UHGV virus genome: UHGV-0017704
DNA length: 38,608 bases
Direction: 5' to 3' (one strand)
Source: a virus
Shown here piece after piece: positions 1-38,608 of the stretch. The first letter of the stretch is position 1. Every line of letters starts with the position of its first letter. The notes under the pieces are model-generated. The model was not told the DNA's origin and made no database searches. It saw only the letters and a program-made list of their open reading frames with translations. Made by a program: the position numbers and the translations under genes.

Positions 1-1388
1 AAGAAAGAGAACGTAAACAGCAAGAAAGAGAACGTAAACAGCAAGAAAGAGAACGTAAACAGCAAGAAAGAGAAGAGGCTAGACGGAAAAAATTAGAACG
101 TTTAGGAAAGTATAGAACCGAACAAGGGCGATTTTTACATTATTTAGTTGCTGAAGATATGACAAAGGAAAACCCGTGTATAAATGTTAATGGTTCAATT
201 GCTATATGGGACGGATATGCTTATACATTTGATGTATTAGAGTTTGTGAGGACAAGAATTAAAGAATATGACAAGGAAACAACAAAACGCGATAGAATTG
301 AAGTTTATAATACAATAGTTGACAATATCTACGATTATCCTAAATTTACGCAAGTTGATAAATACAGAATTGCATTTGATAATGGCGTATTAAATATTAA
401 TACCTTGGAATTTGAAACGGGAACACATCAAGAATATGCTATTTTAAACCATATTCCACATGAATATATTGAGGGTGTAGAGGAACAAGAGGAAGTTAAA
501 ACGTGGCTGAAGAACCTTGCTGACAATGATGAGAATGTATACAGTTTGCTGTTGCAATTGATTGGATACCCTATGTTGGTAAACTGTAACTTGCGAACAG
601 CCTTTATGCTTATGGGTAAAGCACAAGGCGGTAAAACAAAATTCATGGAACACGTTCAATTTTTATATGGTTCTAAAAATTATACAACGTTTGATATTGA
701 CGAGATTAACGGACGATTTAATAAGGTTCAAACATGCGGGAAGTTGTTTAACTATTCAGATGATATAGATAGCGGTTATATTGAAAAACCGAATTTCTTA
801 AAAAGACTTATCTCGGGTTTATCGTTAATGCAAGTAGAGAAAAAAGGTATTGACGGGTATGGATTGCCATTCTATGCAAAAATTATTATGAGTATGAATG
901 AATTTCCTAAAATTAAATTAGATAGTGATATTACGGCTTGGAAGTCAAGACTTAATATTATTAATTTCAAACATAAGTTCGATAAAAACCCTAGATATGA
1001 CGAATGGGCGAATGAAACGCTACGGAATACCGAAGCTATATCATGGTTAATTACTGAAGCAGTAAAAGCAATTAATAAAGCAGTAGATGACGGACAATTT
1101 TGTTATCTTGATGAAAGCTCGTTTAATAGATTTGTTGAAAATATTAACCCTATTCTAAGTGAGGCAATTGAGAAGAGTATAGACGATTGGAAAGAAGTAT
1201 ATGACGTCAAGAAGTGGTATGATGAACAAAAAGAATTAAATGCGTCAAAAACTTCTTTTAATTCTTTTATGAAAATGTTTAATAGTGTGAGTACAAATAA
1301 AGAAATTTATAAAACAAGGCACACGTCTAAAAAGACAAAAATAACAACGTATGTATATAGAGTTAGAGAGATTAAACAACAACAATAG
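1..1388 (+). CDS. SF3 (P4/D5-type) replicative helicase, 3' part of a gene that wraps across the window ends (5' part at 38452..38608)
   Basis: Frame 0 is open from nt 3 into the listed ORF 159..1388. Walker A motif MLMGKAQGGKT. The N-terminus carries in-frame 21-bp repeats encoding ERERKQQ that continue from the window end. Confidence 0.75.
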   Translation, partial: ERERKQQERERKQQERERKQQEREEARRKKLERLGKYRTEQGRFLHYLVAEDMTKENPCINVNGSIAIWDGYAYTFDVLEFVRTRIKEYDKETTKRDRIEVYNTIVDNIYDYPKFTQVDKYRIAFDNGVLNINTLEFETGTHQEYAILNHIPHEYIEGVEEQEEVKTWLKNLADNDENVYSLLLQLIGYPMLVNCNLRTAFMLMGKAQGGKTKFMEHVQFLYGSKNYTTFDIDEINGRFNKVQTCGKLFNYSDDIDSGYIEKPNFLKRLISGLSLMQVEKKGIDGYGLPFYAKIIMSMNEFPKIKLDSDITAWKSRLNIINFKHKFDKNPRYDEWANETLRNTEAISWLITEAVKAINKAVDDGQFCYLDESSFNRFVENINPILSEAIEKSIDDWKEVYDVKKWYDEQKELNASKTSFNSFMKMFNSVSTNKEIYKTRHTSKKTKITTYVYRVREIKQQQ

Positions 1389-1389
1389 T

Positions 1390-1780
1390 ATTTTTGCTGT
1401 TTTATTTCTAAAAATTATTGAAATTGTTCTAAGGCTTGGAACATCTTGGAACAATTTGGAACGAAGGGAATAACCGATAAGGCTAGTAACTACCTAGGCT
1501 AGCAGTGCTTCTGTAAAAATTGTTCAAAGTTCTAAAACCTTTCTTTCTCAAAAACTGAAGAAATATATATATATATATATATATATATAATAATAAAAAA
1601 TAAAAAATATATATAGAGAAGTAGAAAAGTTTTATATCTTGAAACATTTTAAAAATTGAACAGCAAAACATAGATAATTACTGGTTTTATCGGGGTTTTT
1701 AATTGTTCTAATTGCTGTTATGACTTTAGAACAATTAACTTATCACTTTTATATATTGGACATATTACTATTATTTGGTT
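1390..1780. promoter_or_regulatory. Putative origin of replication (iterons, inverted repeats, AT-rich unwinding element)
   Basis: Three direct TTGGAAC repeats (~1436-1465). Repeated AATTGTTCTAA boxes (~1421, ~1520, ~1693) plus a perfect inverted repeat AATTGTTCTAA..TTAGAACAATT (~1693-1735). (AT)13-14 tract. Non-coding, directly downstream of the helicase gene. Confidence 0.45.
1563..1589. repeat. (AT)n dinucleotide microsatellite, about 13 units
   Basis: Read directly from the sequence. Confidence 0.9.
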
Positions 1781-1820
1781 TATGATGTGGTGTGTATTAA
1801 ATGTTATTAAGGAGGTTTAT

Positions 1821-1988
1821 ATGTACATCAACGACGCATTAAAAGATACATTAAGAGATATGCTACAAGAATCAGACTATTACTTTGTATTAGCAGAAAT
1901 AGAGGACGCTTATGCTTCGGGTTGTCGTGACGGTTATGCTGATTGTTACGATACACAACGGACTCAATTGATTAGAGAGATATATTAA
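1821..1988 (+). CDS. Small hypothetical protein (55 aa)
   Basis: ATG preceded by AAGGAGGT. Same frame as listed ORF 1782..1988. Confidence 0.4.
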   Translation: MYINDALKDTLRDMLQESDYYFVLAEIEDAYASGCRDGYADCYDTQRTQLIREIY

Positions 1989-2107
1989 CTGTACACACAA
2001 TTTAGTTACATTTATGTTTCTTATGATTAATTAATCACGAAAGATATAAAACGAGCTTACAGAGTGAATAAGAGCGTTCTAGGGGTATTGTAGGAGGTTT
2101 ATATACT

Positions 2108-2275
2108 ATGACAAATACAGAATTAAAAGTTGCATGTACAACAGCATTTACTATTTTATTCTTTATGGGCTTCTTTGGTGAGGTTGGTTTATTAACTAGT
2201 TTTGTTGTTACAGTTATTTGGTTTATGATGTGGTGTGTATTAAATGTTATCTTGCACTTTGTACGTACAAAATAG
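2108..2275 (+). CDS. Small hydrophobic membrane protein (55 aa)
   Basis: RBS TAGGAGGT then ATG. Two predicted TM segments. Not in the ORF track because it is shorter than 60 aa. Confidence 0.5.
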   Translation: MTNTELKVACTTAFTILFFMGFFGEVGLLTSFVVTVIWFMMWCVLNVILHFVRTK

Positions 2276-2361
2276 TTATGTTTTTATCTCTAGGTAAAAC
2301 TATAAGCCGAAGATACTAAACAGGGCTTATAGGGCGTTTAAATGAATTATGGAGGTATTAT

Positions 2362-5244: not shown

Positions 5245-5273
5245 TTGACATATATATTAGTATTTGATATAAT
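5245..5273 (+). promoter_or_regulatory. Consensus sigma-A promoter TTGACA-17-TATAAT immediately after the large terminase stop
   Basis: Exact hexamers at 5245..5250 and 5268..5273. Confidence 0.55.
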
Positions 5274-5376
5274 ATACTTGAACTAAAAAGATAAAACATT
5301 TATTATCTCCGAGCGGTATGCGTGTTAGTCCCCTAACCCGCAACGCTAAAACAAATTACATTTATATATCTTTTTG

Positions 5377-5410
5377 ACCTGTACAAATTTGTACAGGTTT
5401 TTTATTTTTC
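5377..5410 (+). terminator. Rho-independent terminator
   Basis: Palindrome CCTGTACAAATTTGTACAGG followed by a T-run. Confidence 0.7.
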
Positions 5411-5413: not shown

Positions 5414-5442
5414 TTGACATTGTACTAACAATTTGATATAAT
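5414..5442 (+). promoter_or_regulatory. Late-type promoter TTGACA-TTGTACTAACAAT-TATAAT (copy 1 of 4)
   Basis: Exact -35 and -10 hexamers with a 17-nt spacer containing the inverted repeat ATTGT-ACTA-ACAAT. Confidence 0.6.
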
Positions 5443-5465
5443 GTACTCACAAAGGAGGTGATAAA

Positions 5466-5618
5466 ATGAAAGAAATTAAGAACACACGCTTGCAAGTGCG
5501 TTGTACAGCCGAGGAACTAGAAGAGTTTAAAGAGCAAGCTAATGAGAATGGTTTTACAATATCTGATTATATTAGATACTTGATTGAGAATGATGTGAAA
5601 GGAGGTGAAGAATAACAT
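5466..5618 (+). CDS. Ribbon-helix-helix (CopG-like) small DNA-binding protein, 50 aa
   Basis: RBS AGGAGGTG then ATG. Sequence TRLQVRCTAEELEEFKEQANENGFTISDYIRYLI fits a beta-alpha-alpha RHH fold. Missing from the ORF track because it is shorter than 60 aa. Confidence 0.5.
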
Positions 5619-6829
5619 TGTTTGATTGGTTTAAAAGTGAAAATCGAGCAACAGACGCGGAAATTCTTGCAGATGTAGCCGACGGGTTCGCTCCCCTAAC
5701 TGGAACAGCAAAAACACGAGCTGACGCCTTGAGTATTCCAGCAGTTGCTACCGCAGTTGATTGGATAAGCGGGGCTATTAGTGGTTTACCTATCCGAATG
5801 TATAAGAAAACTGATAGCGGTTATCAAGAAGTATTTGACGATTATCGTATTGATTTAGTTAACCAATACAGCGGTAACTGCATGACGGCTAGTGATTTGT
5901 TCAAGAATATCATTACCGACTATCTACTAGACGGGAACGGGTTCGCTTATGTGGTTAAACGAGGGAATAAGATTGAAAAATTGTCTTATATTCCGCCTAC
6001 AAAGCTAACTTATACAGAGTCAGTAGACTGTATCGATAAAGTCTTGAAAGTATGGGTTGACGCTCGCGAAATTCGAGATTATGATTTGTTGCGTATTTGT
6101 AGACATACAAAGAATGGTTTGACTGGTATTGGTTTTGTATCTGACAATCAACTTTTACTATCTACTATTCTTAACTCTTTGGACTACGAAAACAAAACAA
6201 CGTCAAGCGGTGTGCGTCGTGGTTTCTTAAAATCTAAATTCAAATTAGATAAAGGAAAATTAAAATCGTTGAAAGAGGCTTGGCAGAAGTTACGCAATCG
6301 TGATAGCGATGTATTGGTACTTAATGAGGGTATCGAGTTCGAGAACGCTACAAGCACAGCAACTGAAAGCCAGTTGAGTCAGAATAAGGAAATTAATACC
6401 CGTGCCGTACTCACATACTTTGGTTTACCTAGTAATTTTCTAACAAATGCTAACTCAGATAGTTACAAAACTGCTGTTATGATTGCAGTACTACCTATTG
6501 TGGCTCAGTTAGAAAACGCGTTAAATGAGTACTTGTTGTTGGAAAGTGAAAAGGGTAATTTAAAATTCGTTATTGATACTACTTCTCTTATGCGTACTAA
6601 CATTGTTGAACGTTATAACGCCTATAAAGTAGGCGTTGATAGCGGTGTACTCACAATTGATGAAGTTAGACGTCTTGAGTCTTTACCAGTATTAGATTTG
6701 CCATTTGTTAAAATGTCATTAGGCAACGTATTATATAATACCGAAAATGGTAATATTTTCGTTCCAAATACAGGCGTCACAACAGATATGCAAGGAAATA
6801 CTAATACTCAAGAAAATAATGAAAATTAG
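5618..6829 (+). CDS. Portal protein (HK97 family)
   Basis: TTG start after AGGAGGTG. Hallmark ALSIPAVATAVDWISGAISGLPIRMY. Confidence 0.85.
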   Translation: MFDWFKSENRATDAEILADVADGFAPLTGTAKTRADALSIPAVATAVDWISGAISGLPIRMYKKTDSGYQEVFDDYRIDLVNQYSGNCMTASDLFKNIITDYLLDGNGFAYVVKRGNKIEKLSYIPPTKLTYTESVDCIDKVLKVWVDAREIRDYDLLRICRHTKNGLTGIGFVSDNQLLLSTILNSLDYENKTTSSGVRRGFLKSKFKLDKGKLKSLKEAWQKLRNRDSDVLVLNEGIEFENATSTATESQLSQNKEINTRAVLTYFGLPSNFLTNANSDSYKTAVMIAVLPIVAQLENALNEYLLLESEKGNLKFVIDTTSLMRTNIVERYNAYKVGVDSGVLTIDEVRRLESLPVLDLPFVKMSLGNVLYNTENGNIFVPNTGVTTDMQGNTNTQENNEN

Positions 6830-6832: not shown

Positions 6833-6861
6833 TTGACATTGTACTAACAATACTGTATAAT
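6833..6861 (+). promoter_or_regulatory. Late-type promoter (copy 2 of 4)
   Basis: TTGACATTGTACTAACAAT..TATAAT. Confidence 0.6.
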
Positions 6862-9305: not shown

Positions 9306-9334
9306 TTGCAATTGTACTAACACTATGATATAAT
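9306..9334 (+). promoter_or_regulatory. Late-type promoter (copy 3 of 4, TTGCAA variant)
   Basis: TTGCAATTGTACTAACAC..TATAAT. Confidence 0.5.
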
Positions 9335-9362: not shown

Positions 9363-9809
9363 TTGGTTAGCGTAATTGACGTTATACGAGCGTTAAGTGA
9401 ATTGATTGAAAAAGAGTATCCGAACTATCCAGTTATAGACTATGACGTAGAAGAGAACTTTCCACGCCCGAGTTACTTCATTGAGGTTAACAACGTGCAT
9501 ACAGAATGGGTTGCAACTGACTACGTTCAAGAGTCAAGCGACTTAGAAATTACTTTTTTCGCCGAAGATAGATATTCGGGTTTCTTGGAACTTCTTGACA
9601 TGAAGAACAATTTAACAAAGTTATTCAATGAGCCGTTACAGGTTGGTAATAACTTCTTTGTTACGTTGTTAGAAACTACATCGGAAATTTTCAAGAACGA
9701 TAAAGTACTCACATTTTCATTTACCGCTAACATCGTAAACAAGATTGAGCGTGACGAAACAGACAATTATATGGAAAACTTATTTTATCGGGAGGAGGTT
9801 CACAACTAA
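9363..9809 (+). CDS. Neck / tail completion protein (putative)
   Basis: Sits between the head-closure and sheath genes. TTG start after GGAGGTG. Confidence 0.4.
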   Translation: MVSVIDVIRALSELIEKEYPNYPVIDYDVEENFPRPSYFIEVNNVHTEWVATDYVQESSDLEITFFAEDRYSGFLELLDMKNNLTKLFNEPLQVGNNFFVTLLETTSEIFKNDKVLTFSFTANIVNKIERDETDNYMENLFYREEVHN

Positions 9810-9815: not shown

Positions 9816-10421
9816 ATGGGTGCTAAACGTATTCCGACAGGGACAGTCAGAGGGCTTTTAAAAGTCATAAAACATCTACATAATAACATTTATTTATGCG
9901 AATGTATAAAGTGTGGTGCAGTTTATGAAGTTGCTTCTCGCTTATTAAGTCCTAGAGAAATTAGAAATAAATGCGTTCAATGTTCTAATTGTCATATAGG
10001 AATGGAACATCACGGACGAAGCAAGAATTGCCGTCTATATAGAATATGGGTATCTATGAAAAATAGAGAAAATAATCATGACGGAACGCGACCGACTTAT
10101 ACAGGTAAAACGATGTGTGGCGAATGGAAAAATAGTTTTACTAATTTTTATGATTGGGCTATTTCAAATGGTTATAAATCTAATTTAAGCATAGACCGAA
10201 TAGATAATAACAAAGGATACTCGCCAAATAATTGCCGTTGGGCTACTGCTAAACAGCAAGTTATGAATAGAACTAATACTTTACAGATTGCATATAAAGG
10301 TAAAACAAAGCCTCTTATGGAATGGTGTGAGATATTGAACCTTAGTTATAATACAATTTGGACACGCTTGCATAAGTATAATTGGACAGTTGAAAAAGCC
10401 TTTACGAAAGGAGTTAAATAA
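9816..10421 (+). CDS. Free-standing HNH-like homing endonuclease (paralog A, full length)
   Basis: N-terminal Cys cluster (CECIKCG..CVQCSNC) plus conserved core R-x-Y-x-W..MCGEW..F..W..NGY..LSIDRIDNNKGYSPNNCRWAT. Confidence 0.7.
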   Translation: MGAKRIPTGTVRGLLKVIKHLHNNIYLCECIKCGAVYEVASRLLSPREIRNKCVQCSNCHIGMEHHGRSKNCRLYRIWVSMKNRENNHDGTRPTYTGKTMCGEWKNSFTNFYDWAISNGYKSNLSIDRIDNNKGYSPNNCRWATAKQQVMNRTNTLQIAYKGKTKPLMEWCEILNLSYNTIWTRLHKYNWTVEKAFTKGVK

Positions 10422-11521
10422 TGAGTAATATCCGTGTGGATGTACCCTCTATCGATATTGTATTTAAGCAAAAAGCGGTAACAGCTATTTTGCGTTCTGA
10501 ACGTGGTATTTTAGCCGTGTTAGTACAAGACGATAAACAAACCAAGGGCGTAACCCGCTTTACTTATAAACGTGGAACAGACGTAAACAAAACTGATTAT
10601 AGTGACGCTAATTATACAGCAATCAAACGGGCGTTTGATGTGGCTGTAAATAAAGTTCATGTATTCCGATATGCAAGCACAGTAGAATTGGCGGACGTAT
10701 TAAAAGAAGTTGAAAAGGTACGAATTAATTATATTTGTACTAACGTTAAAGCTAACCAACAAGAATTAGCTAACTGGGTACGCCAATATAATAATGACAA
10801 TCAAGGTCATAAAATTGTAGGCGTTGTGGCTAATATCGAAACAGCAGACAGCAAATACATTATTAATCTTAAAGGTACAGGCGGTACTTTAAAAACTGGT
10901 GACGCTGTAACGGCTGAAGATTATTTAATTCGTATTGCGTCTACATTGGCTAACTTGCCTATGAACCGAAGCTTGACATACTATGTGTTTAGTGATTTGC
11001 AATCTTGGGATGACTCCTATATTAATAGTGAAAATTCTATCGGTGTATGGATAACTAAAGGGTTCTTGACTCTTATTAATGATGACGATGAGGTTAAATG
11101 TGGACGAGCTGTAAACAGCTTAGTAACGTTTACTTCTACAGATACGGAAGATATGAGTAACATTATTATTGTTGAGTCTATGAACTTAATTCTTGAAGAT
11201 ATTTATACAACGTTCAAAGATTATTACGTTGGTAAATACAAAAATACCTTGAGTAATCAACGATTATTTATCTCTAGTGTAAACAGTTATTTCCGTACGT
11301 TGCAAGGCGAAGAAATCTTGGATGACGCATACGATAACCATGCAGAAATTGATATTGAAACTCAACGTAACGCATGGACTTCTATTGGTAAAACTGAGGC
11401 GGAAGATTGGACAGATTTGAAAGTACAACAAATGTCTTTCAAAACAAACGTTTATCTTGCAGGTGATGTGAAAATCACAAATTGCATGGAAGATTTACAC
11501 TTTGAAATCGCGTTAGTATAG
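10421..11521 (+). CDS. Contractile tail sheath protein (XkdK-like)
   Basis: 366 aa, directly upstream of the tube gene. PBSX-type gene order. Confidence 0.7.
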   Translation: MSNIRVDVPSIDIVFKQKAVTAILRSERGILAVLVQDDKQTKGVTRFTYKRGTDVNKTDYSDANYTAIKRAFDVAVNKVHVFRYASTVELADVLKEVEKVRINYICTNVKANQQELANWVRQYNNDNQGHKIVGVVANIETADSKYIINLKGTGGTLKTGDAVTAEDYLIRIASTLANLPMNRSLTYYVFSDLQSWDDSYINSENSIGVWITKGFLTLINDDDEVKCGRAVNSLVTFTSTDTEDMSNIIIVESMNLILEDIYTTFKDYYVGKYKNTLSNQRLFISSVNSYFRTLQGEEILDDAYDNHAEIDIETQRNAWTSIGKTEAEDWTDLKVQQMSFKTNVYLAGDVKITNCMEDLHFEIALV

Positions 11522-11955: not shown

Positions 11956-11961
11956 CGGTAA

Positions 11962-11995
11962 AGGGGGGCGGTAAAACGCCCCTATTACTTTATGT
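11962..11995 (+). terminator. Rho-independent terminator
   Basis: GGGGGGCGGTAAAACGCCCC followed by TATT. Confidence 0.6.
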
Positions 11996-27035: not shown

Positions 27036-27045
27036 ATCTAACACT

Positions 27046-27106: not shown

Positions 27107-27111
27107 TAAAA

Positions 27112-27292: not shown

Positions 27293-27685
27293 ATGAAATG
27301 GTTTAAAGAATACAATGCTAACCCCTACGGGGAAAATATCGATGATTGTGTAATTAGGGCAATAAGCGTTGCACTTGACATTAATTACTGGGACGTGTTC
27401 GATGAATTATGTGAGTACGCGGGAGATAATCGTGAACCAAATCAATGTAACGTATTTTTGCCGTGGCTCATTAAACAAGGTTATGAGGTTAGGGAGGTAA
27501 CTGAAAAGCTCACGTTATCTAAGTTTTTAAATAACCTACATAAATGCGATAATGTGGAAGATGTTAATATGTTATGCATGGTTAACGGACACCTAACAGT
27601 AATAAAGAATGGTTATTGTTTAGATACATGGGACGCGGGGCGATATAAATTGAATTTCATTATCATTAAGGATGTAGAGTATTAA
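27293..27685 (+). CDS. Hypothetical protein with a possible papain/C39-like Cys..His arrangement
   Basis: NIDDCVIRAISVAL near the N-terminus and VNGHLTVIKNGYCLDTWD near the C-terminus. Weak. Confidence 0.3.
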   Translation: MKWFKEYNANPYGENIDDCVIRAISVALDINYWDVFDELCEYAGDNREPNQCNVFLPWLIKQGYEVREVTEKLTLSKFLNNLHKCDNVEDVNMLCMVNGHLTVIKNGYCLDTWDAGRYKLNFIIIKDVEY

Positions 27686-27738: not shown

Positions 27739-29472
27739 TTGATAGTATTTGATTTTGAAGTTTTTCGATATGATTTTCTTTTTGTATCACTAGACTTGGA
27801 AAGTGAACAATATACCATTATCGGAAACGATAGACAACAAATGATAGATTTTTACGAGCAAAATAAGCAAGATATTTGGATAGGTTATAACTGTAAAAAC
27901 TATGATAAATATATCCTACAGGCTATTATAGAGGGTATTAACCCGAAACTAGTCAACGATTATATTATTGGTGGTGGTAATGGTTGGCAACTGTTCGATA
28001 AGAAACTAGATATAAACTTATATGACTGCATGATTATGGGGAAGAGCCTAAAACAATTAGAGTCTTATTTTGGTGTAGATATTCGGGAAACAGAAATTAA
28101 CTTCAATATTGATAGACCATTGACAGCAAAAGAGCGAGTGTCTAATATCGAATATTGTAAATCTGACGTGTATAATACCGCGTTGGTATTCATGTATAAT
28201 AAACAGGAATTTGAGGCTCAGTTAGGTCTAATCAAATTATCGGGAGGTAGTTTACAAGATTTATCTAAAACCAAAGCTCAATTATCCGCGAAGATATTAG
28301 AGGCTAAACCACTACCCGTAAAAATGTTACGGGAAGAGTGGCAATTTGAGTATAACCAATGTGTAAAGGACTATGACTACAAGCATAAAGATGTATTGAA
28401 ATTTTTCGATAGTCTACGAGAAACTAAAGACCCTAAATCAAAATACGAATGTGAATTGTATGGTGTACCTCATACGTTCGCCCTAGGGGGTTTACATGGT
28501 GCAGTACCTAATTACATTCATACTATTAATGAACGTGAGTACATCGTTCATATTGACGTTGCCTCATATTATCCGCATATTATGACTGAATGGGGCTTCT
28601 TGACTCGTGCTGTTCCGAGTATTCAGAAATTTAAGGATATTATGGAATTACGCTTAAAATACAAAAAAGAAAAGAACCCTTTACAAGCACCGCTTAAAAT
28701 CTGTATTAATGGTTCATACGGACAAAGCGGGGCAGGTAAACAATTAGATGACGGAAGTTATAAGATACTATCCAATATGTTTGACCCTCGCCGTATGCGT
28801 GAGGTGTGTATCAACGGGCAATTAATGTTATTACAATTGATAGAAGATTTAGAACAATTTGATTTGATACAATCTAATACAGACGGGCTAGTATATCGGA
28901 TACCAATAGAACGTATGAACGAGGTTAAATCGATAGTTAAATTATGGGAACGTAGAACCAAAATGACAATGGAATTTGACTATACAACGTTTATTGCTCA
29001 ACGCGATGTTAACAATTATGTCGCTGTGTTTGATAATGGGAAGATAGAACGTAAAGGCGGGGCGGTGAAAGAGTCTAAGCCTTGTGATTATGACTTGCCA
29101 GTAGTTAAGGACGCCGTAGTTGAATACTTCGTACATGGTATTCCAGTAGAGGAATATATCAATAGTATTAATGAGTTAGCTCCTTTTATGAAAACATATA
29201 AGCTCAGAGGTTCGTATTTACGGGCGTTGCATGGTGATGAGGAACAACAAGGAAAAGTATTCCGCGTATTCGCAAGCCGTATCAGAAAAGACGGCTGTCT
29301 ATACAAACAAAAAGACGGTAAGAATAAAGAGAAATTTGCGGGCTGTCCCGAACGTTGCAAGATTGTGAATAGTGATATACGGGAGCTTGCTGTTCCCTCA
29401 TGGTTAGACCGAAATTGGTATATTGAAATGGCTAACAAGGAGATAAGTAAATTTACAAAAAGTAATACATGA
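27739..29472 (+). CDS. Family-B DNA polymerase with 3'-5' exonuclease (compact, 577 aa)
   Basis: Exo I FDFEVF, Exo II YNCKNYDKYIL, Exo III YCKSDVY. Motif A DVASYYPHIM, motif B KICINGSYGQ, motif C NTDGL. TTG start after AGGAGGT. Confidence 0.7.
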   Translation: MIVFDFEVFRYDFLFVSLDLESEQYTIIGNDRQQMIDFYEQNKQDIWIGYNCKNYDKYILQAIIEGINPKLVNDYIIGGGNGWQLFDKKLDINLYDCMIMGKSLKQLESYFGVDIRETEINFNIDRPLTAKERVSNIEYCKSDVYNTALVFMYNKQEFEAQLGLIKLSGGSLQDLSKTKAQLSAKILEAKPLPVKMLREEWQFEYNQCVKDYDYKHKDVLKFFDSLRETKDPKSKYECELYGVPHTFALGGLHGAVPNYIHTINEREYIVHIDVASYYPHIMTEWGFLTRAVPSIQKFKDIMELRLKYKKEKNPLQAPLKICINGSYGQSGAGKQLDDGSYKILSNMFDPRRMREVCINGQLMLLQLIEDLEQFDLIQSNTDGLVYRIPIERMNEVKSIVKLWERRTKMTMEFDYTTFIAQRDVNNYVAVFDNGKIERKGGAVKESKPCDYDLPVVKDAVVEYFVHGIPVEEYINSINELAPFMKTYKLRGSYLRALHGDEEQQGKVFRVFASRIRKDGCLYKQKDGKNKEKFAGCPERCKIVNSDIRELAVPSWLDRNWYIEMANKEISKFTKSNT

Positions 29473-29537
29473 TATGCGTTTTATATATTTGATTTTGTGA
29501 GTACATCGTAGTACAATTAAATCATAGGAGGTACAAA

Positions 29538-29918
29538 GTGACTAGACGAGTTAAAACTATTAACTATTATACTAACGAAACTATTAAAGAATATGCTAAT
29601 GCACAATATGCGTCAATGGATACAGGGGACAGCGTTCCCCGTATCTTGAACCAATGTAACAGACGAGGAGGAACACAAGCACCACAACAAGATTATTATT
29701 ATCGTTGGTCAGATGATACACCAACACCACATAAGATTGTACAGATTTACGATTTAGATTTTGAATTAATTGGTGAGTACATCAGCATTCAAGAGGCGTA
29801 TAAAGCTACGTCAATCAGACGCGAAAGTATCTATAAACAGCTAGACAATAAGTTACCGCTTAAAGAGCGGAAGAGTCCTAGCTCGGGTTTATATTTCAAA
29901 TGGCGGTGTGTGGAATGA
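29538..29918 (+). CDS. NUMOD1-like DNA-binding protein (homing-endonuclease accessory domain)
   Basis: IVQIYDLDFELIGEYISIQEAYKATSIRRESIYKQL matches the HTH domain of homing endonucleases. GTG start. Confidence 0.4.
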   Translation: MTRRVKTINYYTNETIKEYANAQYASMDTGDSVPRILNQCNRRGGTQAPQQDYYYRWSDDTPTPHKIVQIYDLDFELIGEYISIQEAYKATSIRRESIYKQLDNKLPLKERKSPSSGLYFKWRCVE

Positions 29919-30135
29919 GTAAAAAAATTAAACTTAATCGGTAACCAATTCGGGAAATTAACTGTTATTAAATATGCAGGGACTAAAAATAATAGAACAG
30001 CGTGGTTATAAAGATAACTTAACAATTGACAGAATTAACAATGACGGAAACTACGAACCTAGTAATTGCCGTTGGACTACCATGAAACAACAAGCGAGAA
30101 ACAAGAGAAATATTACGAGAAAAGAGGTATTATAA
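29917..30135 (+). pseudogene. Decayed HNH-like homing endonuclease (internal deletion and stops)
   Basis: MSKKIKLNR* then [22 protein letters not shown] then [31 protein letters not shown]. The N- and C-terminal family motifs are present, but the middle is missing. Confidence 0.55.
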
Positions 30136-30137: not shown

Positions 30138-30299
30138 GTGCAGTATATAAAAGATTGTTTATCAAGAAATATGAGTTTAAGAGATATTGAGAAAAAGTAT
30201 CATGTTACTGATGTATTAGGTGAGTATAGAAAACATAAACAAATGTACTCACAAGAATGTATTGACCGCATTATGGAGGAGGTTTACTATGACGCTTAA
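30138..30299 (+). CDS. Small hypothetical protein (possible HTH)
   Basis: GTG after AAGAGGT. Same frame as listed ORF 30066..30299. Confidence 0.3.
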   Translation: MQYIKDCLSRNMSLRDIEKKYHVTDVLGEYRKHKQMYSQECIDRIMEEVYYDA

Positions 30300-30829: not shown

Positions 30830-31151
30830 CAATATGCGAATAGGTCATAGAGTGGAAAAGGCGTATGATATTAATAACCCGCCTTTTACTCTTATGAGGG
30901 TACCAAAGGTTGACAATGGTCTATTAATCGAAACAGATTGCGATAACATTATTGTGAGTACAGATACAAGATTATTAACCGCCCGTGGTATTTGGAAGCA
31001 AGCTGACAAATTACAGCAAGGTGAGTTACTTAAAACAGTATCTTGTAATGCTAAAATCACAAGGCTTATATCATGTAGACAACCAATTGAAATGTTCTAT
31101 GCTTGTAATAGTGATAGATTTTGTGTTAACGGGTTTTTTATTGACGGATAA
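30813..31151 (+). CDS. Hypothetical protein, possible Hint-like N-terminal region
   Basis: CDNIIVSTDTRLLTARGIWKQADKLQQGELLKT resembles a Hint-domain N-terminus. Weak. Confidence 0.3.
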   Translation: MFSVSSNMRIGHRVEKAYDINNPPFTLMRVPKVDNGLLIETDCDNIIVSTDTRLLTARGIWKQADKLQQGELLKTVSCNAKITRLISCRQPIEMFYACNSDRFCVNGFFIDG

Positions 31152-32545: not shown

Positions 32546-32687
32546 AAATATATTAGCGTTTTTAGGTTTTGTGTTCACAATGTATTGTATTGTAGCATTA
32601 CCTCATATGGTAAAATGGCTAGTGAGTATGTATGTATTATATTTAGTTGCTATCTGGTTAGGAGCACCGCATAACGATGAGCCGTAA
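32526..32687 (+). CDS. Small membrane protein (53 aa)
   Basis: Two TM segments. Overlaps the holin gene end. Confidence 0.3.
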   Translation: MRMRIVKNILAFLGFVFTMYCIVALPHMVKWLVSMYVLYLVAIWLGAPHNDEP

Positions 32688-33048
32688 AATTATTTGCCCT
32701 AGATGTGGCAAAATTACAGAAGTTGGACATGATTGCCCGAATAAATATAAGGATACACGCAAAAAAGAACAGTTACAGGGGAGCCGTTGGCAACGTATCC
32801 GCGACGAGGTTCGTAGGCGTGACGGATGTTGTGTGTTGTGTTGGTTGAATGGTGAGTACAGCAAGGGAAACCACGTTCACCATATCATTGAGCGTCAAAC
32901 AGACAGTTCAGACGATAACGTGTATAATGTTAATAAATGTGTATTCTTATGTGAGGACTGTCATCACAAAGTACACCAAACACAATCAGAATGGACTAAA
33001 TATATTGATGTGTTCACAAAATACGTAGAAGCAAGGAAACATGAATAA
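32677..33048 (+). CDS. HNH endonuclease (classical Zn-finger HNH)
   Basis: CPRCG..GCCVLCW..HVHHI..N..LCEDCHHKVH. Confidence 0.7.
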   Translation: MSRKIICPRCGKITEVGHDCPNKYKDTRKKEQLQGSRWQRIRDEVRRRDGCCVLCWLNGEYSKGNHVHHIIERQTDSSDDNVYNVNKCVFLCEDCHHKVHQTQSEWTKYIDVFTKYVEARKHE

Positions 33049-33289
33049 TTTTAGACAAAGCTATGCATGGAAACGAAAACGCTCGGAGATAAAAGAATTA
33101 TATAATGGCAAGTGTGCCGTGTGTGGCAGTACTGAGAAGTGCGAAGCTCATCATATAATCTCATTATCGGTATTGCCACAATTACGACTGGACAATGATA
33201 ACTTGATACTGCTTTGTAGCCACTGTCACAAATTGGTGCACAACGGCTTAATATCATCGACAAACTTAATGCATAAAGTAAAGAGGTAA
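33041..33289 (+). CDS. HNH endonuclease (second, adjacent)
   Basis: CAVCGS..AHHIISL..DNLILLCSHCHKLVH. Confidence 0.65.
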   Translation: MNNFRQSYAWKRKRSEIKELYNGKCAVCGSTEKCEAHHIISLSVLPQLRLDNDNLILLCSHCHKLVHNGLISSTNLMHKVKR

Positions 33290-33320
33290 GGTCATTATGA
33301 CCTTGCCTCATTTTTATTAT
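33278..33320 (+). terminator. Terminator
   Basis: AAGGTCATTATGACCTT followed by GCCTCATTTTTATT. Confidence 0.5.
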
Positions 33321-33333
33321 GCGTTTTAAGTAT

Positions 33334-33362
33334 TAGACATATTATATAGGGTGTGTTATTAT
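33334..33362 (+). promoter_or_regulatory. Early-type promoter AAGTATTAGACA-17-TATTATAAT
   Basis: Belongs to the shared promoter family. Confidence 0.5.
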
Positions 33363-33400
33363 AATAGTGAAGAGGGAACAAGATAATATGGAGGTACAAA

Positions 33401-33604
33401 ATGATTAACAAAAAACTTAAACACTATGAAGCAACTTGGAACGGCGTTATTATTAATGAGTTTGATAACTATAGTCAATTCTTTAATTGGCTTATGAAAG
33501 TTGATTGTTGGGGCGTGCGTGACTTTGGTGGTGATACTGGTATTATATTAGTAGAACCAATTAATAAAGCATACTTGCAAAAATTGAATATCATAAATGA
33601 CTAA
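33401..33604 (+). CDS. Hypothetical protein
   Basis: 67-aa ORF after a promoter. Confidence 0.4.
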   Translation: MINKKLKHYEATWNGVIINEFDNYSQFFNWLMKVDCWGVRDFGGDTGIILVEPINKAYLQKLNIIND

Positions 33605-33611
33605 TAAGTAT

Positions 33612-33640
33612 TAGACAAGTTTTACAAGATGATGTATGCA
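33612..33640 (+). promoter_or_regulatory. Early-type promoter
   Basis: AAGTATTAGACAAGTTTTACAAGATGATGTAT, a 32-mer identical to the one at 33807. Confidence 0.45.
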
Positions 33641-33654
33641 AGGAGGCTACTAAT

Positions 33655-33783
33655 ATGAAAAGTTTAACATTGATTTTAGCATTGACATTACCTATCATAT
33701 GGGGACTTGATTTGACAATCTGTAACGTCTTTATTGCTGTTGCACTTTGGGGTGTTGAGGTGGCTAAATGGTTGAATGATTAA
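33655..33783 (+). CDS. Small hydrophobic protein (42 aa)
   Basis: RBS AAGGAGG then ATG. Two hydrophobic segments. Confidence 0.35.
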   Translation: MKSLTLILALTLPIIWGLDLTICNVFIAVALWGVEVAKWLND

Positions 33784-33812
33784 AAGTTATAGTAATTATG
33801 TAATTTAAGTAT

Positions 33813-33841
33813 TAGACAAGTTTTACAAGATGATGTATTAT
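33813..33841 (+). promoter_or_regulatory. Early-type promoter
   Basis: TAGACA-17-TATTATAAT. Confidence 0.5.
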
Positions 33842-33885
33842 AATTATAGACGCTGAGTTAAGTTATTACATGGAGGTAATTAAAA

Positions 33886-34320
33886 ATGAAAAACGTAAAA
33901 ACATTAACAGCAACAATTCTTATCGGTATGGGTTTATTAATGGGTGGTTGTGGTAGTAACCAACAAACAGCAATGCAAGCTCAGACAACAACACAAACTC
34001 AAACAGTACAACAAACTGAGGGAATTAGCCTAGCAAAAGCCCTTGACCTAGCTAAAAAAGGACAATTCACACCGCAAAAAGTAAAATTCGAAGCGATGAT
34101 TACGGACAAGGTATTTGGCGATGAACCCGAAATTATTGTTCAACATTGGATAAAAATGGGTGATTTGCATAAACCTGTTAACATTCATATTACAGACCCT
34201 CAAATTATCAAAAATGTAGCTAAAATGCAAGAAGAGCGTAAAAATAATTATGTACAGGGTACTGGAACAATTGACGCAACTGAAATTATTTTCAATCAAT
34301 GGAGCGTAGAGGTGAAATAA
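33886..34320 (+). CDS. Lipoprotein (signal peptide plus lipobox LLMGGC), candidate superinfection-exclusion protein
   Basis: MKNVKTLTATILIGMGLLMGGCGS, then a Q/T-rich linker and a globular domain. Confidence 0.6.
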   Translation: MKNVKTLTATILIGMGLLMGGCGSNQQTAMQAQTTTQTQTVQQTEGISLAKALDLAKKGQFTPQKVKFEAMITDKVFGDEPEIIVQHWIKMGDLHKPVNIHITDPQIIKNVAKMQEERKNNYVQGTGTIDATEIIFNQWSVEVK

Positions 34321-34422
34321 TGAGAAAACAACAACTAAGGAAAATTGCTAAATGCAAAAACTATTATGTATCTGATAGGGCGTATGTAGCAATTTTGTAT
34401 ATCGCATGGAGGAAATACTGTA

Positions 34423-34989
34423 ATGAAAAAAATCGTATGTACTAACAATGAGGACTTTTATAACTATCTACAAAATAAAGGCTGTAAAGCTGTTATGTAT
34501 TATCGACCAATTGACGGGCTTTTGAATATTTGGTTCCCGTGTACTCACAATATCACGATATGCGGTAACCGATATAACCAACAACGGATAGAGTCGGGAG
34601 AAATGAAACGGGAATTTGAGGAGCTTAAAAAGCTAGTAGAAACACCTAATACAATTGTCATCACACCAGTTACATTGTTTAATGGCTGTCTACATAACCA
34701 AATCTACCCCGAAAGCATGAGCAACGTACGCCGTCAACGTATTCATACGGCGTCACTAGGTGAGCTAGTATATCCTCACTGGGTGCATATCTACGGGGCG
34801 AAACTGGAACCACTACCACCAATTGAGATAAAACAAGAGTACGTTTATTATGGTGACGGAAAACGCCAACAAGATTTATATTGGAATGTATTCTATAACA
34901 AGTGTTCCAAAGAGGAACGCCGTAAAAAACGTCATATTCCCGAGTATGCTTTATTTAGTCAATTATATAAACAGGTGATTAACAAATGA
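34423..34989 (+). CDS. Hypothetical protein (188 aa)
   Basis: ORF after GGAGG. No recognisable motifs. Confidence 0.5.
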   Translation: MKKIVCTNNEDFYNYLQNKGCKAVMYYRPIDGLLNIWFPCTHNITICGNRYNQQRIESGEMKREFEELKKLVETPNTIVITPVTLFNGCLHNQIYPESMSNVRRQRIHTASLGELVYPHWVHIYGAKLEPLPPIEIKQEYVYYGDGKRQQDLYWNVFYNKCSKEERRKKRHIPEYALFSQLYKQVINK

Positions 34990-35122
34990 AACGATTAGAA
35001 CCAAATCAAGTAGTAATGATTGAGGCTTTATATTATGACTATGAAATATATCGATGAATTATGTGAGTACAATTTCAAACAAGGTATGACTTTAACGAAT
35101 ACCAATAATGATAATTAAGTAT

Positions 35123-35151
35123 TAGACAAATTACAGTATATCCTGTATTAT
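35123..35151 (+). promoter_or_regulatory. Early-type promoter
   Basis: AAGTATTAGACA-17-TATTATAATAAG. Confidence 0.5.
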
Positions 35152-35204
35152 AATAAGTGAGGAGAGGTAATGAACCTCAGTTATTATAAAGGAGATACGA
35201 AAAT

Positions 35205-35465: not shown

Positions 35466-35574
35466 TGTGGCGGGCTAGGGTAAGAACGCGCAAGATGAAA
35501 CTTATTGCATGTGGTGTGAGTACAATATACGTTATAGAAATGTTAACATGTATTTATTTAGGAGGTTGACAATT

Positions 35575-35786: not shown

Positions 35787-36332
35787 ATGTTTAAGACAGG
35801 TGATTTAGTATGCGATAAACGGCGTACCATAGTAGGCGTTATTGGTGAGATTAAGCACCAAAGGGCAACAATTACAGTATTATGGAATAAGCCTCCCGAG
35901 GCTCAAGGCTGTAAAATAGTTATATTGCATTGCGATAACATTGAGCTATTACCACAGGGAACACGGGTTACTAAGCATTTTAAAGGCGGTATAACAGATA
36001 CTATCTTATATAACTATTATGATAGTAGCACGGGTTTAATTAAAGATGTTACTGGTAATAATTTTACAGCATGGAACCTAGACGGGACTTGTGATTTGGA
36101 ATTTGAATTTGTTGACGATGTGAGTACAAAGAATAACAAACAATATACAACGCTTGATATTGAACCATGGGACATTATGCAAGCAGATTTCACACGAGAA
36201 GAGTTTGTCGGGTTTTTGAAAGGAAATATCATTAAATATTGTTTGAGAAAAAAGGGTTCTGATTTACAAGATTTTGAAAAAATTGAACATTATGCTAAGA
36301 AGTTACAAGAGGTTTTAAAGAATGAAAATTAA
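35787..36332 (+). CDS. Protein with a C-terminal DUF3310-like domain
   Basis: C-terminus YTTLDIEPWDIMQ..FVGFLKGNIIKYCLRKKG..EHYAKKL. Confidence 0.5.
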   Translation: MFKTGDLVCDKRRTIVGVIGEIKHQRATITVLWNKPPEAQGCKIVILHCDNIELLPQGTRVTKHFKGGITDTILYNYYDSSTGLIKDVTGNNFTAWNLDGTCDLEFEFVDDVSTKNNKQYTTLDIEPWDIMQADFTREEFVGFLKGNIIKYCLRKKGSDLQDFEKIEHYAKKLQEVLKNEN

Positions 36333-36762: not shown

Positions 36763-36795
36763 AGAGCATACTAAGTATGCTCTTTTTGTATTTTA
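36763..36795 (+). terminator. Rho-independent terminator
   Basis: AGAGCATACTAAGTATGCTCT followed by TTTTGTATTTT. Confidence 0.65.
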
Positions 36796-36853
36796 CAAAT
36801 TAGGATATTTGGTGTATTCTAATTATAGAAGATAAAGTTACTTATGGAGGTAA
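36793..36853 (+). repeat. 61-bp regulatory cassette, copy 2 (identical to 27046..27106)
   Basis: Exact identity. Confidence 0.8.
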
Positions 36854-36859
36854 ACAAAA

Positions 36860-37042
36860 ATGACTAGAACACAAGCGTTAGAAGATTTATTTTTTGCAGT
36901 TAAAACTCACTTGATGAAACGTGTAGAACGTGAAACAGCTGTATGGGTTGCCACTAACGTAACAGTTAGAGTAGAACAAAACAGCAAGATGACAATTGAT
37001 GATATTAAAAAATTACGTGATGACTTTATTATGAGAGGTTAA
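36860..37042 (+). CDS. Hypothetical 60-aa protein
   Basis: Downstream of the cassette. Confidence 0.45.
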   Translation: MTRTQALEDLFFAVKTHLMKRVERETAVWVATNVTVRVEQNSKMTIDDIKKLRDDFIMRG

Positions 37043-37044
37043 TT

Positions 37045-37299
37045 ATGTTAAATGATTTCACAATTAATTATAGAGGGGTACAAATTGCCCCTCAGCTAAG
37101 ACATGACGTACAATGTGATGTATTATGTTATGACTACTACGATAAGCACGTAGAGGTAACATTTGATTATATGATGTATGATAGTTCGGTTAAAATGGAG
37201 TATATCGAAAATATTAAATATGTAGCCGAACAGGGTTTAAATGAGTTGCGTGAGCGAGATATAAACGATTGGTATAACAGCATGGTAGGAGGTGTATAA
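37045..37299 (+). CDS. Hypothetical protein
   Basis: 84-aa ORF. Confidence 0.45.
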   Translation: MLNDFTINYRGVQIAPQLRHDVQCDVLCYDYYDKHVEVTFDYMMYDSSVKMEYIENIKYVAEQGLNELRERDINDWYNSMVGGV

Positions 37300-38035
37300 T
37301 ATGAATACAAAATTTTATAAAGGATATACAGAGTTACGGAATAAAGTACCTACATCAAAACGCAAGAGCCGTATTATAAAGTCCGAGTGGCAAGAGGTTG
37401 GCGGGTTTATTGGTGATGAATATGTACTTGTTGATATTGACGATAAAGTAAACGCTGATTTGTTTTTTAATGTGTGTATTAACTGGGACATTAAATGTCA
37501 TGTGACTGAGTCGCGTCATGGAATACACGCCATTTTTAGAAAACCAACGGAACAACTTGCGTATGGTAACAGAAAAGAAACGTTGACGGGTGTGATTTGT
37601 GATTACAAATGTTCCAATAACAAGGGTTATGAACGTATCATAATTGACGGCGAACCGCTACCAGTTATTTATGGGTGTGATGAACCCGACGTTCTACCGT
37701 GGTTGCTGTTTCCGTTCGGACGTCATAGAAATTTACAGCAAATACAAGAGGGGGACGGGCGTCATAATATATTGTTAGGTTTATCGAACGTATACGCTAT
37801 GTATGAGAATGACCCTAGTAAAATATTATATGCAGTTAACTGGGTTAATGAAAATGTGTTCACACAAGCACGGGAAGCGGTCAATATTCGTATGTGTGAC
37901 GTACAAGATAGTATCAGATATATGAGTAAAAGCTATACAGATACAGAATTTTATAATATCATTAAAGACGTCGATAAGAATAAACTTATTAAATTGTGTG
38001 TACAATATGGGTTAATTAAGGAGGCTAATAAATGA
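37292..38035 (+). CDS. Primase-polymerase (AEP family prim-pol domain)
   Basis: Motif I VLVDIDD, motif II SRHGIHAIF (sxxGxHxxF). No helicase domain. An SF3 helicase is encoded separately downstream. Confidence 0.65.
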   Translation: MYNMNTKFYKGYTELRNKVPTSKRKSRIIKSEWQEVGGFIGDEYVLVDIDDKVNADLFFNVCINWDIKCHVTESRHGIHAIFRKPTEQLAYGNRKETLTGVICDYKCSNNKGYERIIIDGEPLPVIYGCDEPDVLPWLLFPFGRHRNLQQIQEGDGRHNILLGLSNVYAMYENDPSKILYAVNWVNENVFTQAREAVNIRMCDVQDSIRYMSKSYTDTEFYNIIKDVDKNKLIKLCVQYGLIKEANK

Positions 38036-38211
38036 GGGAATTTATAGAGTACGCATTTTATGGTGACGTGGTTGGCAAATCTGTAAAACAGGTAAAACAG
38101 TTATATAATATATATTGTAAACTGTTTGTATGTGATGAGGTTGACAATATAGAGAATAGAATTTGCAATGAGTATGGGTTATTTATTGAGAAAGGATATT
38201 TTATAAAATGA
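38032..38211 (+). CDS. Small hypothetical protein (59 aa)
   Basis: ATG overlaps the upstream stop. Confidence 0.3.
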   Translation: MREFIEYAFYGDVVGKSVKQVKQLYNIYCKLFVCDEVDNIENRICNEYGLFIEKGYFIK

Positions 38212-38459
38212 AATTATATTTAAAATATGGGCAAGTGGTTGAATTAGGAAATGTACTCAGAATTAGATATGAGGGAGGTCACGAGGTTAAACCCTTTAAA
38301 TATAGTAATAATTGTGATGAGGTGTATGGTGTACCCGATAAATATTGTAGGTCTGAAGATGAACAGATGATTGAATTTTATAATGATAAGAATGAAGTAT
38401 TTCAATGTTACGAGTATGACGTAATTGGTGTATTGGAGGAAAGACCTAAAAATGATTAA
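38208..38459 (+). CDS. Hypothetical protein
   Basis: 83-aa ORF. Confidence 0.4.
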   Translation: MKLYLKYGQVVELGNVLRIRYEGGHEVKPFKYSNNCDEVYGVPDKYCRSEDEQMIEFYNDKNEVFQCYEYDVIGVLEERPKND

Positions 38460-38608
38460 TATTAAAATTGAATTGAAGAAGTTAAGAGATACAGGTGAGT
38501 ACTCACCTAACCAACTAAAAGAAATTAAAGAACAATGGGAATATGAAAATGAGGTAGAAAAAGAAAAAGAAAGAGAACGTAAACAGCAAGAAAGAGAACG
38601 TAAACAGC
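38452..38608 (+). CDS. 5' part of the SF3 helicase gene (continues at 1..1388 across the circular junction)
   Basis: ATG at 38452 overlaps the upstream stop. The frame is open to the window end, with (ERERKQQ)n repeats in phase with the window start. Confidence 0.6.
   Translation, partial: MINIKIELKKLRDTGEYSPNQLKEIKEQWEYENEVEKEKERERKQQERERKQ

Follow-up and report, generated by a model that had tools for sequence, protein, structure and literature searches.

Candidate genome-wide operators of a small ribbon-helix-helix protein in the human-gut myovirus genome UHGV-0017704

The stoperators of Cluster A mycobacteriophages such as L5 and Bxb1 are repressor sites that occur 20–30 or more times genome-wide, only a few of them being true operators in promoters; each lineage has a consensus of its own, which co-evolves with the repressor (PMC6550527). 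They are 13–14 bp long, show no dyad symmetry, are co-oriented with transcription and are bound by a monomeric two-domain helix-turn-helix (HTH) repressor in temperate phages (PMC6550527, PMC9283540). Here, a dispersed short box is described in the 38,608-nucleotide virus genome UHGV-0017704 (the window, i.e., the whole stretch of DNA that was analyzed), together with a 49-residue ribbon-helix-helix (RHH) protein encoded at 5466–5615 on the + strand, which is proposed as the reader of the box. Small RHH repressors are known from Arc and Mnt of Salmonella phage P22 and CopG of plasmid pMV158, proteins of about 45–53 residues that are autoregulated and bind over promoter elements; Arc and CopG each use one operator of adjacent subsites, which is bound cooperatively. 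NikA of plasmid R64 binds a single oriT site and helps the relaxase to nick. Moreover, small proteins that read dispersed, short (pseudo)palindromic sites, some of them far from promoters, are known from KorB and its OB sites in RK2, omega of pSM19035, MatP and matS in E. coli and the C1 operators of P1. MatP and omega contain RHH domains, and the systems of this type make use of extra domains (ParB/CTPase, coiled-coil tetramerisation) or tandem heptads and comprise 12 to about 23 sites per replicon or macrodomain.

The octamer GTGAGTAC is present in 29 copies in the window, 16 on the + strand and 13 on the − strand, and all 29 coordinates and strands listed in an earlier sequence-only reading of this DNA proved to be exact. 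Its estimate that about one copy should occur by chance is borne out by dinucleotide shuffles (mean 0.91 copies, maximum 4) and by Markov models of order 1–3 (0.8–1.5 copies), corresponding to an enrichment of about 30-fold; among all 8-mers the octamer ranks second by raw count and first after correction for composition. A codon-preserving shuffle had been set beforehand as the refuting test, and here the null stays well under 29 and the enrichment stands: permutation of codons within genes resulted in a mean of 5.6 copies and permutation of synonymous codons only in a mean of 7.1 copies (maximum 14), about five of these null copies being intergenic sites that the shuffling leaves untouched. 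The reported bias of the flanks is real as well, the extended form TGTGAGTACA being found 16 times compared to 0.09 copies expected. Two features had been overlooked, namely a second enriched variant, GTTAGTAC, with 14 copies compared to 1.7 expected, and the excess of boxes in non-coding DNA (10/43 in 9% of the sequence, p = 0.004), several of them at fixed positions within promoters. Both variants together amount to 43 boxes, 21 on the + and 22 on the − strand. The octamer encodes the peptides that had been described (VST, xEY, VLT, CTH and YS) and never occupies the frame that reads TGA. The presence in several frames and on both strands, the persistence of the enrichment through synonymous shuffles and a conservation far above background support selection at the level of the DNA and not of a peptide.

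GTGAGTAC and GTTAGTAC form the 8-bp core of a box of 10–14 bp, (A)(T)TGT-[G/T]AGT-ACA(A)(T), and together with its flanks the core reads ATTGT-[G/T]AGT-ACAAT, with palindromic arms around an asymmetric center. The frame TGT-N4-ACA is common to all variants and is found 54 times in the window compared to 16.7 expected. In contig 127852, a complete relative of 37.7 kb with 42 boxes and about 78% DNA identity, 16 of 27 boxes are preserved without any change compared to 17.5% of background 8-nucleotide windows (p = 1.4e-6), and in the related locus L001 exact conservation applies to 7 of 12 boxes compared to 24.6% of the background (p = 0.013). The box class is under purifying selection. Furthermore, the G and T variants (GTGAGTAC and GTTAGTAC) are swapped in place between relatives at 5422 and 22799, and in contig 127852 the center of the box at 17665 is inverted in place with retention of the ATTGT...ACAAT arms. 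These in-place swaps and the in-place inversion show that GTGAGTAC and GTTAGTAC belong to one site class. The features of the box are in line with a protein contacting both halves of the dyad and argue against a polarity of the Chi, KOPS or primase type. A regular spacing of the boxes in the window was not found (coefficient of variation 0.91 compared to 0.96 for random placement).

Some of the boxes occupy fixed places in promoters. Three promoters share the arrangement TTGACA-tt-GTACTAAC-aat..tga-TATAAT, starting at 5414, 6833 and 17657, and a fourth one with the variant hexamer TTGCAA starts at 9306; in all four the T-variant box GTTAGTAC lies 2 nucleotides past the −35 hexamer. All of them are on the + strand. 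The consensus promoter TTGACA-17-TATAAT at 5414–5442 precedes the RHH-portal operon and is the only promoter with two boxes, one in the spacer (GTTAGTAC, 5422–5429, −; G-type in contig 127852) and one at +1, directly after the −10 element (GTGAGTAC, 5443–5450, −). The consensus promoter at 6833–6861 serves the protease and capsid genes and carries a conserved spacer box at 6841–6848 (−), and the promoter TTGCAA-17-TATAAT at 9306–9334 serves the tail-terminator gene and carries a conserved spacer box at 9314–9321 (−). The consensus promoter of the baseplate genes at 17657–17685 contains the spacer box at 17665–17672 (−) whose core is inverted in contig 127852. At the promoter TTGACG-17-TATAAT of the VRR-NUC gene (23728–23756, +) a G-variant box (GTGAGTAC, 23757–23764, +) directly follows the −10 element, as it does at 5414. 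Moreover, a conserved intergenic GTGAGTAC box (14972–14979, +) is located 10 nucleotides upstream of the −35 element of a promoter-like site at 14989–15018 (+). Six of the 43 boxes in the window lie within or abut promoters. A survey of 16 genomes or loci yielded 228 promoter-like sites on the + strand, of which 54 contain the box of their own lineage, mostly 2 nucleotides past the −35 hexamer, compared to a chance expectation of 0.07–0.39 per locus. The promoter positions that recur across lineages are those before RHH/portal, the protease, the tail-terminator gene and the baseplate genes.

The box itself differs between lineages. Relatives with a sheath protein of about 70% identity do not contain GTGAGTAC and have instead GTTACAAC, with 13–16 copies per 18–20 kb compared to about 1.5 expected, or TGTTGCAACA, a perfect palindrome that is found at the same promoter positions in sister lineages, as in the spacer TTTACA-at-TGTTGCAACA-cgtga-TATAAT. 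In the lineage of L046 and L047 the box GTGAACAC occurs 12 times compared to 0.35 expected, also within a promoter spacer. In general, the lineage boxes GTGAACAC, GTTACAAC and GTTGCAAC take the same promoter positions as GTGAGTAC and GTTAGTAC, and the density is about one box per kb in every lineage. Three box classes co-occur within a single metagenome sample. The window also contains four copies of a minor box, TGTGAACACA, compared to 0.09 expected, which is the main box of the L046/L047 lineage. No box enrichment was detected in unrelated contigs and distant relatives, including prophage-like relatives in Negativicutes contigs, and four distant relatives spanning the terL-portal junction (L010 and L036–L038) show neither an RHH gene nor enrichment.

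The gene of the proposed reader lies directly behind the two-box promoter at 5414, at the head of the portal-protease-capsid operon. Its assignment draws on Pfam, PDB sequences, AlphaFold2 (AF2) and Foldseek, and covariation. In Pfam, the NikA-like family PF21983 is the only curated family above threshold (36.7 bits at a cutoff of 27, E = 4.9e-9), whereas RHH_1, RHH_5, CopG_antitoxin, ParG and MatP_C stay below threshold. The family comprises at least 128 members of 45–58 residues, almost all on contigs of 35–40 kb, and PF21983 is precomputed on most of the 128 homologues; some variants occur in about 100–200 assemblies. The gene is located between terL and portal in every context examined, including every enriched genome. 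A family profile searched against PDB sequences matches NikA (2ba3, the best match) and the P22 Arc repressor, with R8, Q/A10 and R12 of the family aligning with Gln9, Asn11 and Arg13 of Arc. In the Arc-operator structure these are the base-contacting residues of the strand. The AF2 model (pLDDT 84) has residues 1–14 extended, followed by helices at 15–27 and 32–46; it is a model of the monomer, and the RHH strand forms only in the dimer. The top Foldseek matches are all RHH proteins, i.e., Arc (TM 0.71–0.83, root-mean-square deviation about 1 Å) and a CopG-DNA complex, both with probability 0.99, and MatP is among the fold matches. With its strand-helix-helix topology the modeled protein is thus predicted to belong to the Arc/CopG fold, and an obligate dimer whose two-stranded antiparallel ribbon would read bases in the major groove finds indirect support in the alignment with Arc and in the covariation of arm and strand with the box core. 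The invariant C-terminal KGGEE was considered as an interaction motif and was rejected, as it corresponds to the Shine-Dalgarno sequence of the portal gene.

The arm and strand of the RHH protein match the dominant box core in 18 of 18 genomes, which fall into five box classes. The sequence x-T-R-(L/I/A)-Q-V-R goes along with the core GAGT and minor TAGT, N-V-R-L-Q-V-R with TAGT only, E-V-R-T-Q-V-R with GAAC, (L/M)-T-K-R-(I/V)-A-F-R with TACA, and E-K, T-N or T-H before R-(I/V)-A-F-R with TGCA. Two mosaic genomes are informative in this respect. In L046, which has the GAAC box, the capsid is 95–96% identical to that of GAGT-class phages, whereas the boxes go with the arm or strand of the RHH protein. 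L054 has the TGCA box, while capsid and portal are nearest to the TACA class (capsid identity of 84–87% compared to 63–64% to other TGCA phages), and also here the boxes match the arm or strand of its own RHH protein and not the capsid/portal background. A third genome, L052, combines RHH helices of the TGCA class with arm, strand and boxes of the TACA class. It was rejected as a control for separating the strand from the genome background, since its flanking genes are of the TACA class too; the only conclusion it allows is that the helices do not determine the box class.

It is therefore proposed, with more confidence than doubt, that the boxes are genome-wide operators of a phage-encoded, dimeric RHH repressor, the product of 5466–5615. 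An RHH dimer would contact one box by placing its beta-ribbon in the major groove; from a spacer or +1 position it would block RNA polymerase and thereby repress the structural promoters together with its own synthesis. Since the promoters already have the sigma-A consensus with 17-bp spacing, binding to the box could only hinder RNA polymerase, which is why the protein is suggested to be a repressor. The other boxes, about 36 isolated and mostly intragenic sites, would act by occupancy alone, because the RHH protein has no domain beyond the DNA-binding fold. They were also considered as hidden promoters, which was rejected as no −35 or −10 elements lie beside them. Between near relatives intragenic boxes keep their position; between the deep classes 0 of 11 positions coincide, the sole exception being the helicase site at 22799, which is rewritten in place.

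Provided that the RHH-operator reading is right, the favored reading of the intragenic boxes is a titrating sink, a role that seems possible and falls somewhat short of an even chance; such a sink would tie the free repressor, and hence the output of the structural genes, to the copy number of the phage genome. A more elaborate version, which is rather speculative, sees in them decoys by which the phage counts its own genomes. The RHH protein would be the first product of the late promoter that it represses and each genome copy would add about 40 sites, so that the repressor and the mRNA of portal, protease and capsid, stemming from the same transcripts, would be made in proportion to genome copies. 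In this version the rapid diversification of box and strand would insulate the repressor pools of co-infecting relatives, similar to the immunity groups of temperate phages. As alternatives to the sink, weak roadblocks or silencing on the one hand and a function in DNA organization on the other hand appear doubtful to the same degree.

Several points weigh against the RHH protein as reader of isolated operators. Known RHH repressors usually need at least two adjacent boxes for stable binding, and cooperative tandem or partner boxes at helical spacing are not enriched in the window (56 observed compared to about 55 expected). For temporal control, the synthesis of a repressor from a late promoter would be an odd design, and sequence alone says nothing of what the intragenic boxes do. 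Moreover, the RHH protein is linked to the box by correlation, and in view of the relatedness of the genomes the 18 of 18 matches cannot be counted as independent events. In L052 the RHH strand and the genome background go together, and the box reader may be encoded by the host. An alternative that is regarded as unlikely is that another sequence-specific protein, either of the phage or a host regulator that differs between the hosts of the lineages, reads the boxes and that the covariation with the RHH protein reflects linkage or ancestry. The promoter-spacer position and the dyad arms point to a protein site and do not name the protein, and isolated boxes are unusual for RHH proteins. However, the only classical HTH candidate, the HTH_3 protein at 27097–27291, was rejected, as it is absent from the 42-box contig 127852 and its recognition helix, compared over orthologues in both motif groups, does not track the box class. 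The NUMOD1 protein at 29538–29918 was rejected as well, as it is restricted to the GTGAGTAC group among the regions fetched and thus cannot account for the homologous boxes of other lineages. Domain searches of the shared genes did not reveal any further DNA-binding domain. In addition, the box class of the mosaic genomes L046 and L054 agrees with the arm or strand of their RHH proteins, relatives that lack the RHH gene also lack the enrichment, and the co-occurrence of three box classes within one metagenome sample speaks against a host regulator or other protein as well.

The remaining alternatives address the functions that had been proposed from the octamer alone. That the boxes are strand-specific nick or base-modification sites, e.g., with a NikA-like accessory protein guiding a phage HNH endonuclease, gains some interest from the relaxosome accessory NikA being the best Pfam match of the RHH protein, from about seven HNH or homing-endonuclease-like open reading frames (ORFs) in the window and from the fact that some phages, of the T5, phiKMV or tf type, carry nicks at short consensus sites. 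Nevertheless it is very improbable: the palindromic boxes of sister lineages would be cut on both strands, the places and numbers of HNH genes vary in relatives as expected for mobile homing genes, no methyltransferase was found in the window, and a fixed position in promoter spacers is expected of regulation and not of nicking. For a restriction-modification or methylation target avoidance would be the mark, whereas this site is enriched about 30-fold. Even less probable is a function as a polar signal, similar to Chi, KOPS or primase sites, with an orientation to the origin or the genome ends. The clusters of orientation on which a replication-oriented Chi, primase, helicase or translocase site had been based were correctly described, with five consecutive − sites at 2.9–9.7 kb and 12 of 15 sites on the + strand after 23.7 kb, and the replication module of L001 has 14 sites on the + and 2 on the − strand. 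However, neither a two-breakpoint permutation (p = 0.19) nor a runs test (p = 0.13) distinguishes the order in the window from a random one, and the order is mixed in contig 127852. Moreover, inversion of a core in place, palindromic boxes in sister lineages, a fixed position within promoters and the use of different boxes by close relatives in one sample speak against a polar signal, and the proposal of a polar signal is disfavored. A host DNA-uptake sequence or passive signature of the host genome is the most remote of the explanations. Uptake sequences do occur in both orientations and inside genes, as the boxes do, and distant relatives of the phage are located in Negativicutes genomes, but these prophage-like relatives do not show such an enrichment, and neither the location in promoter spacers nor the covariation of box and RHH protein would be explained. 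Taken together, uptake, nicking and modification do not account for the position in promoter spacers, the rewriting of the box between lineages and its covariation with a phage DNA-binding protein. More generally, a strong k-mer enrichment in a phage need not signal Chi, uptake or restriction.

The further boxes are distributed over the whole window and are given here in map order. The primase gene contains a GTGAGTAC box at 1287–1294 (+), which is replaced by the T-type at the same place in L053, and another GTGAGTAC box follows at 2879–2886 (−). The portal gene harbors GTGAGTAC at 6407–6414 (−), GTTAGTAC at 6594–6601 (−; conserved in L053) and GTGAGTAC at 6647–6654 (−; conserved in contig 127852). 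After a GTGAGTAC box at 9705–9712 (−), the sheath gene contains GTTAGTAC at 10519–10526 (+) and 10737–10744 (−), the latter being conserved in contig 127852 and L053. Two further GTTAGTAC boxes are found at 14188–14195 (+) and, conserved and at a gene end, at 14900–14907 (+). They are followed by conserved GTGAGTAC boxes at 16037–16044 (+), 16442–16449 (−) and 18942–18949 (+; in L001 and contig 127852), by a GTTAGTAC box at 20527–20534 (+; conserved in contig 127852) with the minor box TGTGAACACA at 20545–20554 (+), by GTTAGTAC at 21226–21233 (−) and by GTGAGTAC at 21838–21845 (+). The densest cluster comprises four boxes in 227 bp (22681–22907) inside the helicase gene, where no obvious promoter is seen: GTGAGTAC at 22681–22688, 22727–22734 and 22799–22806 (all −) and GTTAGTAC at 22900–22907 (+). 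All four are conserved in contig 127852, the one at 22799 as T-type, and this box is rewritten in place in group-B phages, with GTTACAAC and GTTGCAAC at the same place in L015 and L017, respectively.

Downstream of this cluster, GTGAGTAC is present at 23639–23646 (−) and GTTAGTAC in the gene of the single-stranded DNA-binding protein (SSB) at 26039–26046 (−). GTGAGTAC boxes are then found at 27411–27418 (+; conserved in L001 and contig 127852), in the DNA polymerase gene at 28535–28542 (+; conserved in L001), between genes before the NUMOD1 gene at 29497–29504 (+; conserved), and at 29773–29780 (+; conserved in L001), 30245–30252 (−; conserved in contig 127852) and 30954–30961 (+). An HNH gene contains GTGAGTAC at 32852–32859 (+). 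Two copies of the minor box TGTGAACACA lie at 32570–32579 (−) and 33009–33018 (−). GTTAGTAC at 34439–34446 (−; conserved in L001) is followed by GTGAGTAC at 34541–34548 (−), 35063–35070 (+; intergenic, conserved in L001), 35516–35523 (+) and 36120–36127 (+), and the last minor box TGTGAACACA lies at 37855–37864 (−). At 38495–38506 two overlapping GTGAGTAC boxes, one on each strand, form the perfect palindrome GTGAGTACTCAC.

The window represents a small myovirus with its own replication genes and 35% G+C, in which every gene is on the + strand. Genes were identified for a D5-type primase, an SNF2 helicase, VRR-NUC, ERF, SSB, DNA polymerase, dUTPase, terminase, portal, S78 protease, capsid, sheath, baseplate, GH25 lysin and holin. 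Domain searches of the window proteins revealed no integrase, CI-type repressor, lysogeny module or methyltransferase, and scans of the window with Rfam and for tRNAs gave no matches. A megablast search against phage genomes returned no match and thus no close cultured phage; the polymerase is 43% identical to Bacillus and Paenibacillus phage polymerases and the sheath 40% identical to a Fusobacterium phage sheath. According to the sample names the close family derives from human-gut metagenomes. An identical RHH protein and the same gene order are found on an ENA contig of 38,678 bp. A tandem 24-nucleotide coding repeat (KERERKQQ) at 1–80 and 38560–38608 joins the last ORF to the primase ORF (159–1388) across the ends of the window. 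The last ORF ends inside this repeat, which is resumed at position 1, and the window is therefore probably a circularly closed, circularly permuted complete genome; given the repeat, the primase might be encoded by one long gene or by a split gene. The primase gene is followed by an AT-rich non-coding region (1389–1781) with TTGGAAC iterons and a (TA)12 run, which is plausible as the replication origin that the sequence-only reading had assumed. HNH or homing-endonuclease-like ORFs are located at 9816–10421, 16801–17235, 24116–24820, 26427–27035, 29974–30135 and 32677–33289, and the variation of their positions between close relatives suggests mobile homing genes. The polymerase match in L001 extends over 2.5 kb for 572 residues, which indicates an insertion in this gene.

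Further repeated elements were observed in the window and its relatives. A second dispersed octamer, AACAGCAA, occurs 30 times compared to about 2 copies expected (21 on the +, 9 on the − strand), at sites including 16, 37, 58, 546, 1394, 1659, 1712 and 3856 up to 38582; four copies lie within the KERERKQQ coding repeat and three within the putative origin region, and an extended consensus is lacking. The enrichment is shared by contig 127852 (27 copies), L001 and L046–L048; the octamer is nearly absent from L006, L015 and L051 (0–2 copies) and is present in 4 copies in L043 and 7 in L017. Three cassettes are repeated in the window and do not contain a box: TAAGTATTAGACA...TATTATAAT with four copies (33290–35170), a repeat of about 60 bp starting with TTTACAAATTAGGATATTTGGTGTATTCTAAT with two copies (27036–27096 and 36790–36859), and a terminator followed by ATTACTTTATGTAATA...TATTTGAC with two copies (11956–12013 and 21331–21400), which is found in L015 too. 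These box-free cassettes suggest several promoter classes. Between terL and the RHH promoter, the region 5245–5405 consists of a perfect consensus promoter (5245–5273), about 100 ORF-free nucleotides and a strong terminator (5376–5399) that is conserved in relatives; its RNA folds unusually stably (−32 kcal/mol, z = −5.5), has no Rfam match and is a candidate small RNA. In L038, a prophage-like contig of a Veillonellaceae metagenome-assembled genome without an RHH gene, CCGCATCA occurs 15 times compared to 0.5 expected, with 14 of these copies sharing a strand; unlike the box, this octamer is genuinely polar, and the two represent different phenomena. The top 8-mer of L007 is accounted for by about 13 tandem copies of the hexamer GCATTA in an ORF of the structural region (6016–6090), which is unrelated to the boxes, and L046 of the GAAC class contains at 197–883 a gene with a weak match to EcoRI_methylase that has no counterpart in the window.

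If the RHH-operator reading is true, a widespread family of myoviruses of about 38 kb in the human gut runs its structural genes by an RHH repressor of 45–58 residues whose box is kept at about one per kb. The five box classes together with changes of one or two residues in arm and strand would then represent a natural specificity code for the smallest known DNA-reading fold. The box also provides a simple typing marker for these phages.

A prior description of this box system was not found in literature searches. With the minimal RHH repressors Arc and Mnt of P22 and CopG of pMV158 the protein shares its size and fold, Arc and CopG being its best structural matches; unlike in the case of Arc and CopG, 43 isolated boxes without partners are distributed over 38.6 kb. 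The resemblance to NikA of R64 consists in the PF21983 match and the best PDB sequence match (2ba3), whereas the phage has neither a relaxase nor an oriT and its gene lies between terL and portal. KorB, omega, MatP and P1 C1 are analogues and not relatives, the density of one box per kb being far higher than in these systems. The closest known logic is that of the Cluster A repressor and its stoperators. The present boxes differ from stoperators in having an 8-bp core and palindromic TGT...ACA arms, which become a perfect palindrome in sister lineages, and in being placed on both strands (21 + and 22 −) although all genes are on the + strand, with one box inverted in place. Furthermore, the candidate reader is an RHH protein of 49 residues, no integrase, CI-like repressor or lysogeny module was found, and most of the sites are inside genes. 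Similar to stoperators, 43 boxes are dispersed over the genome with six of them in or abutting promoters, and the consensus differs by lineage and tracks the candidate reader over five classes and 18 of 18 genomes. If the RHH-operator reading is right, the boxes would constitute the first stoperator-like genome-wide system found outside actinobacteriophages, which would use another reader fold, would be independent of orientation and would operate without a lysogeny module.

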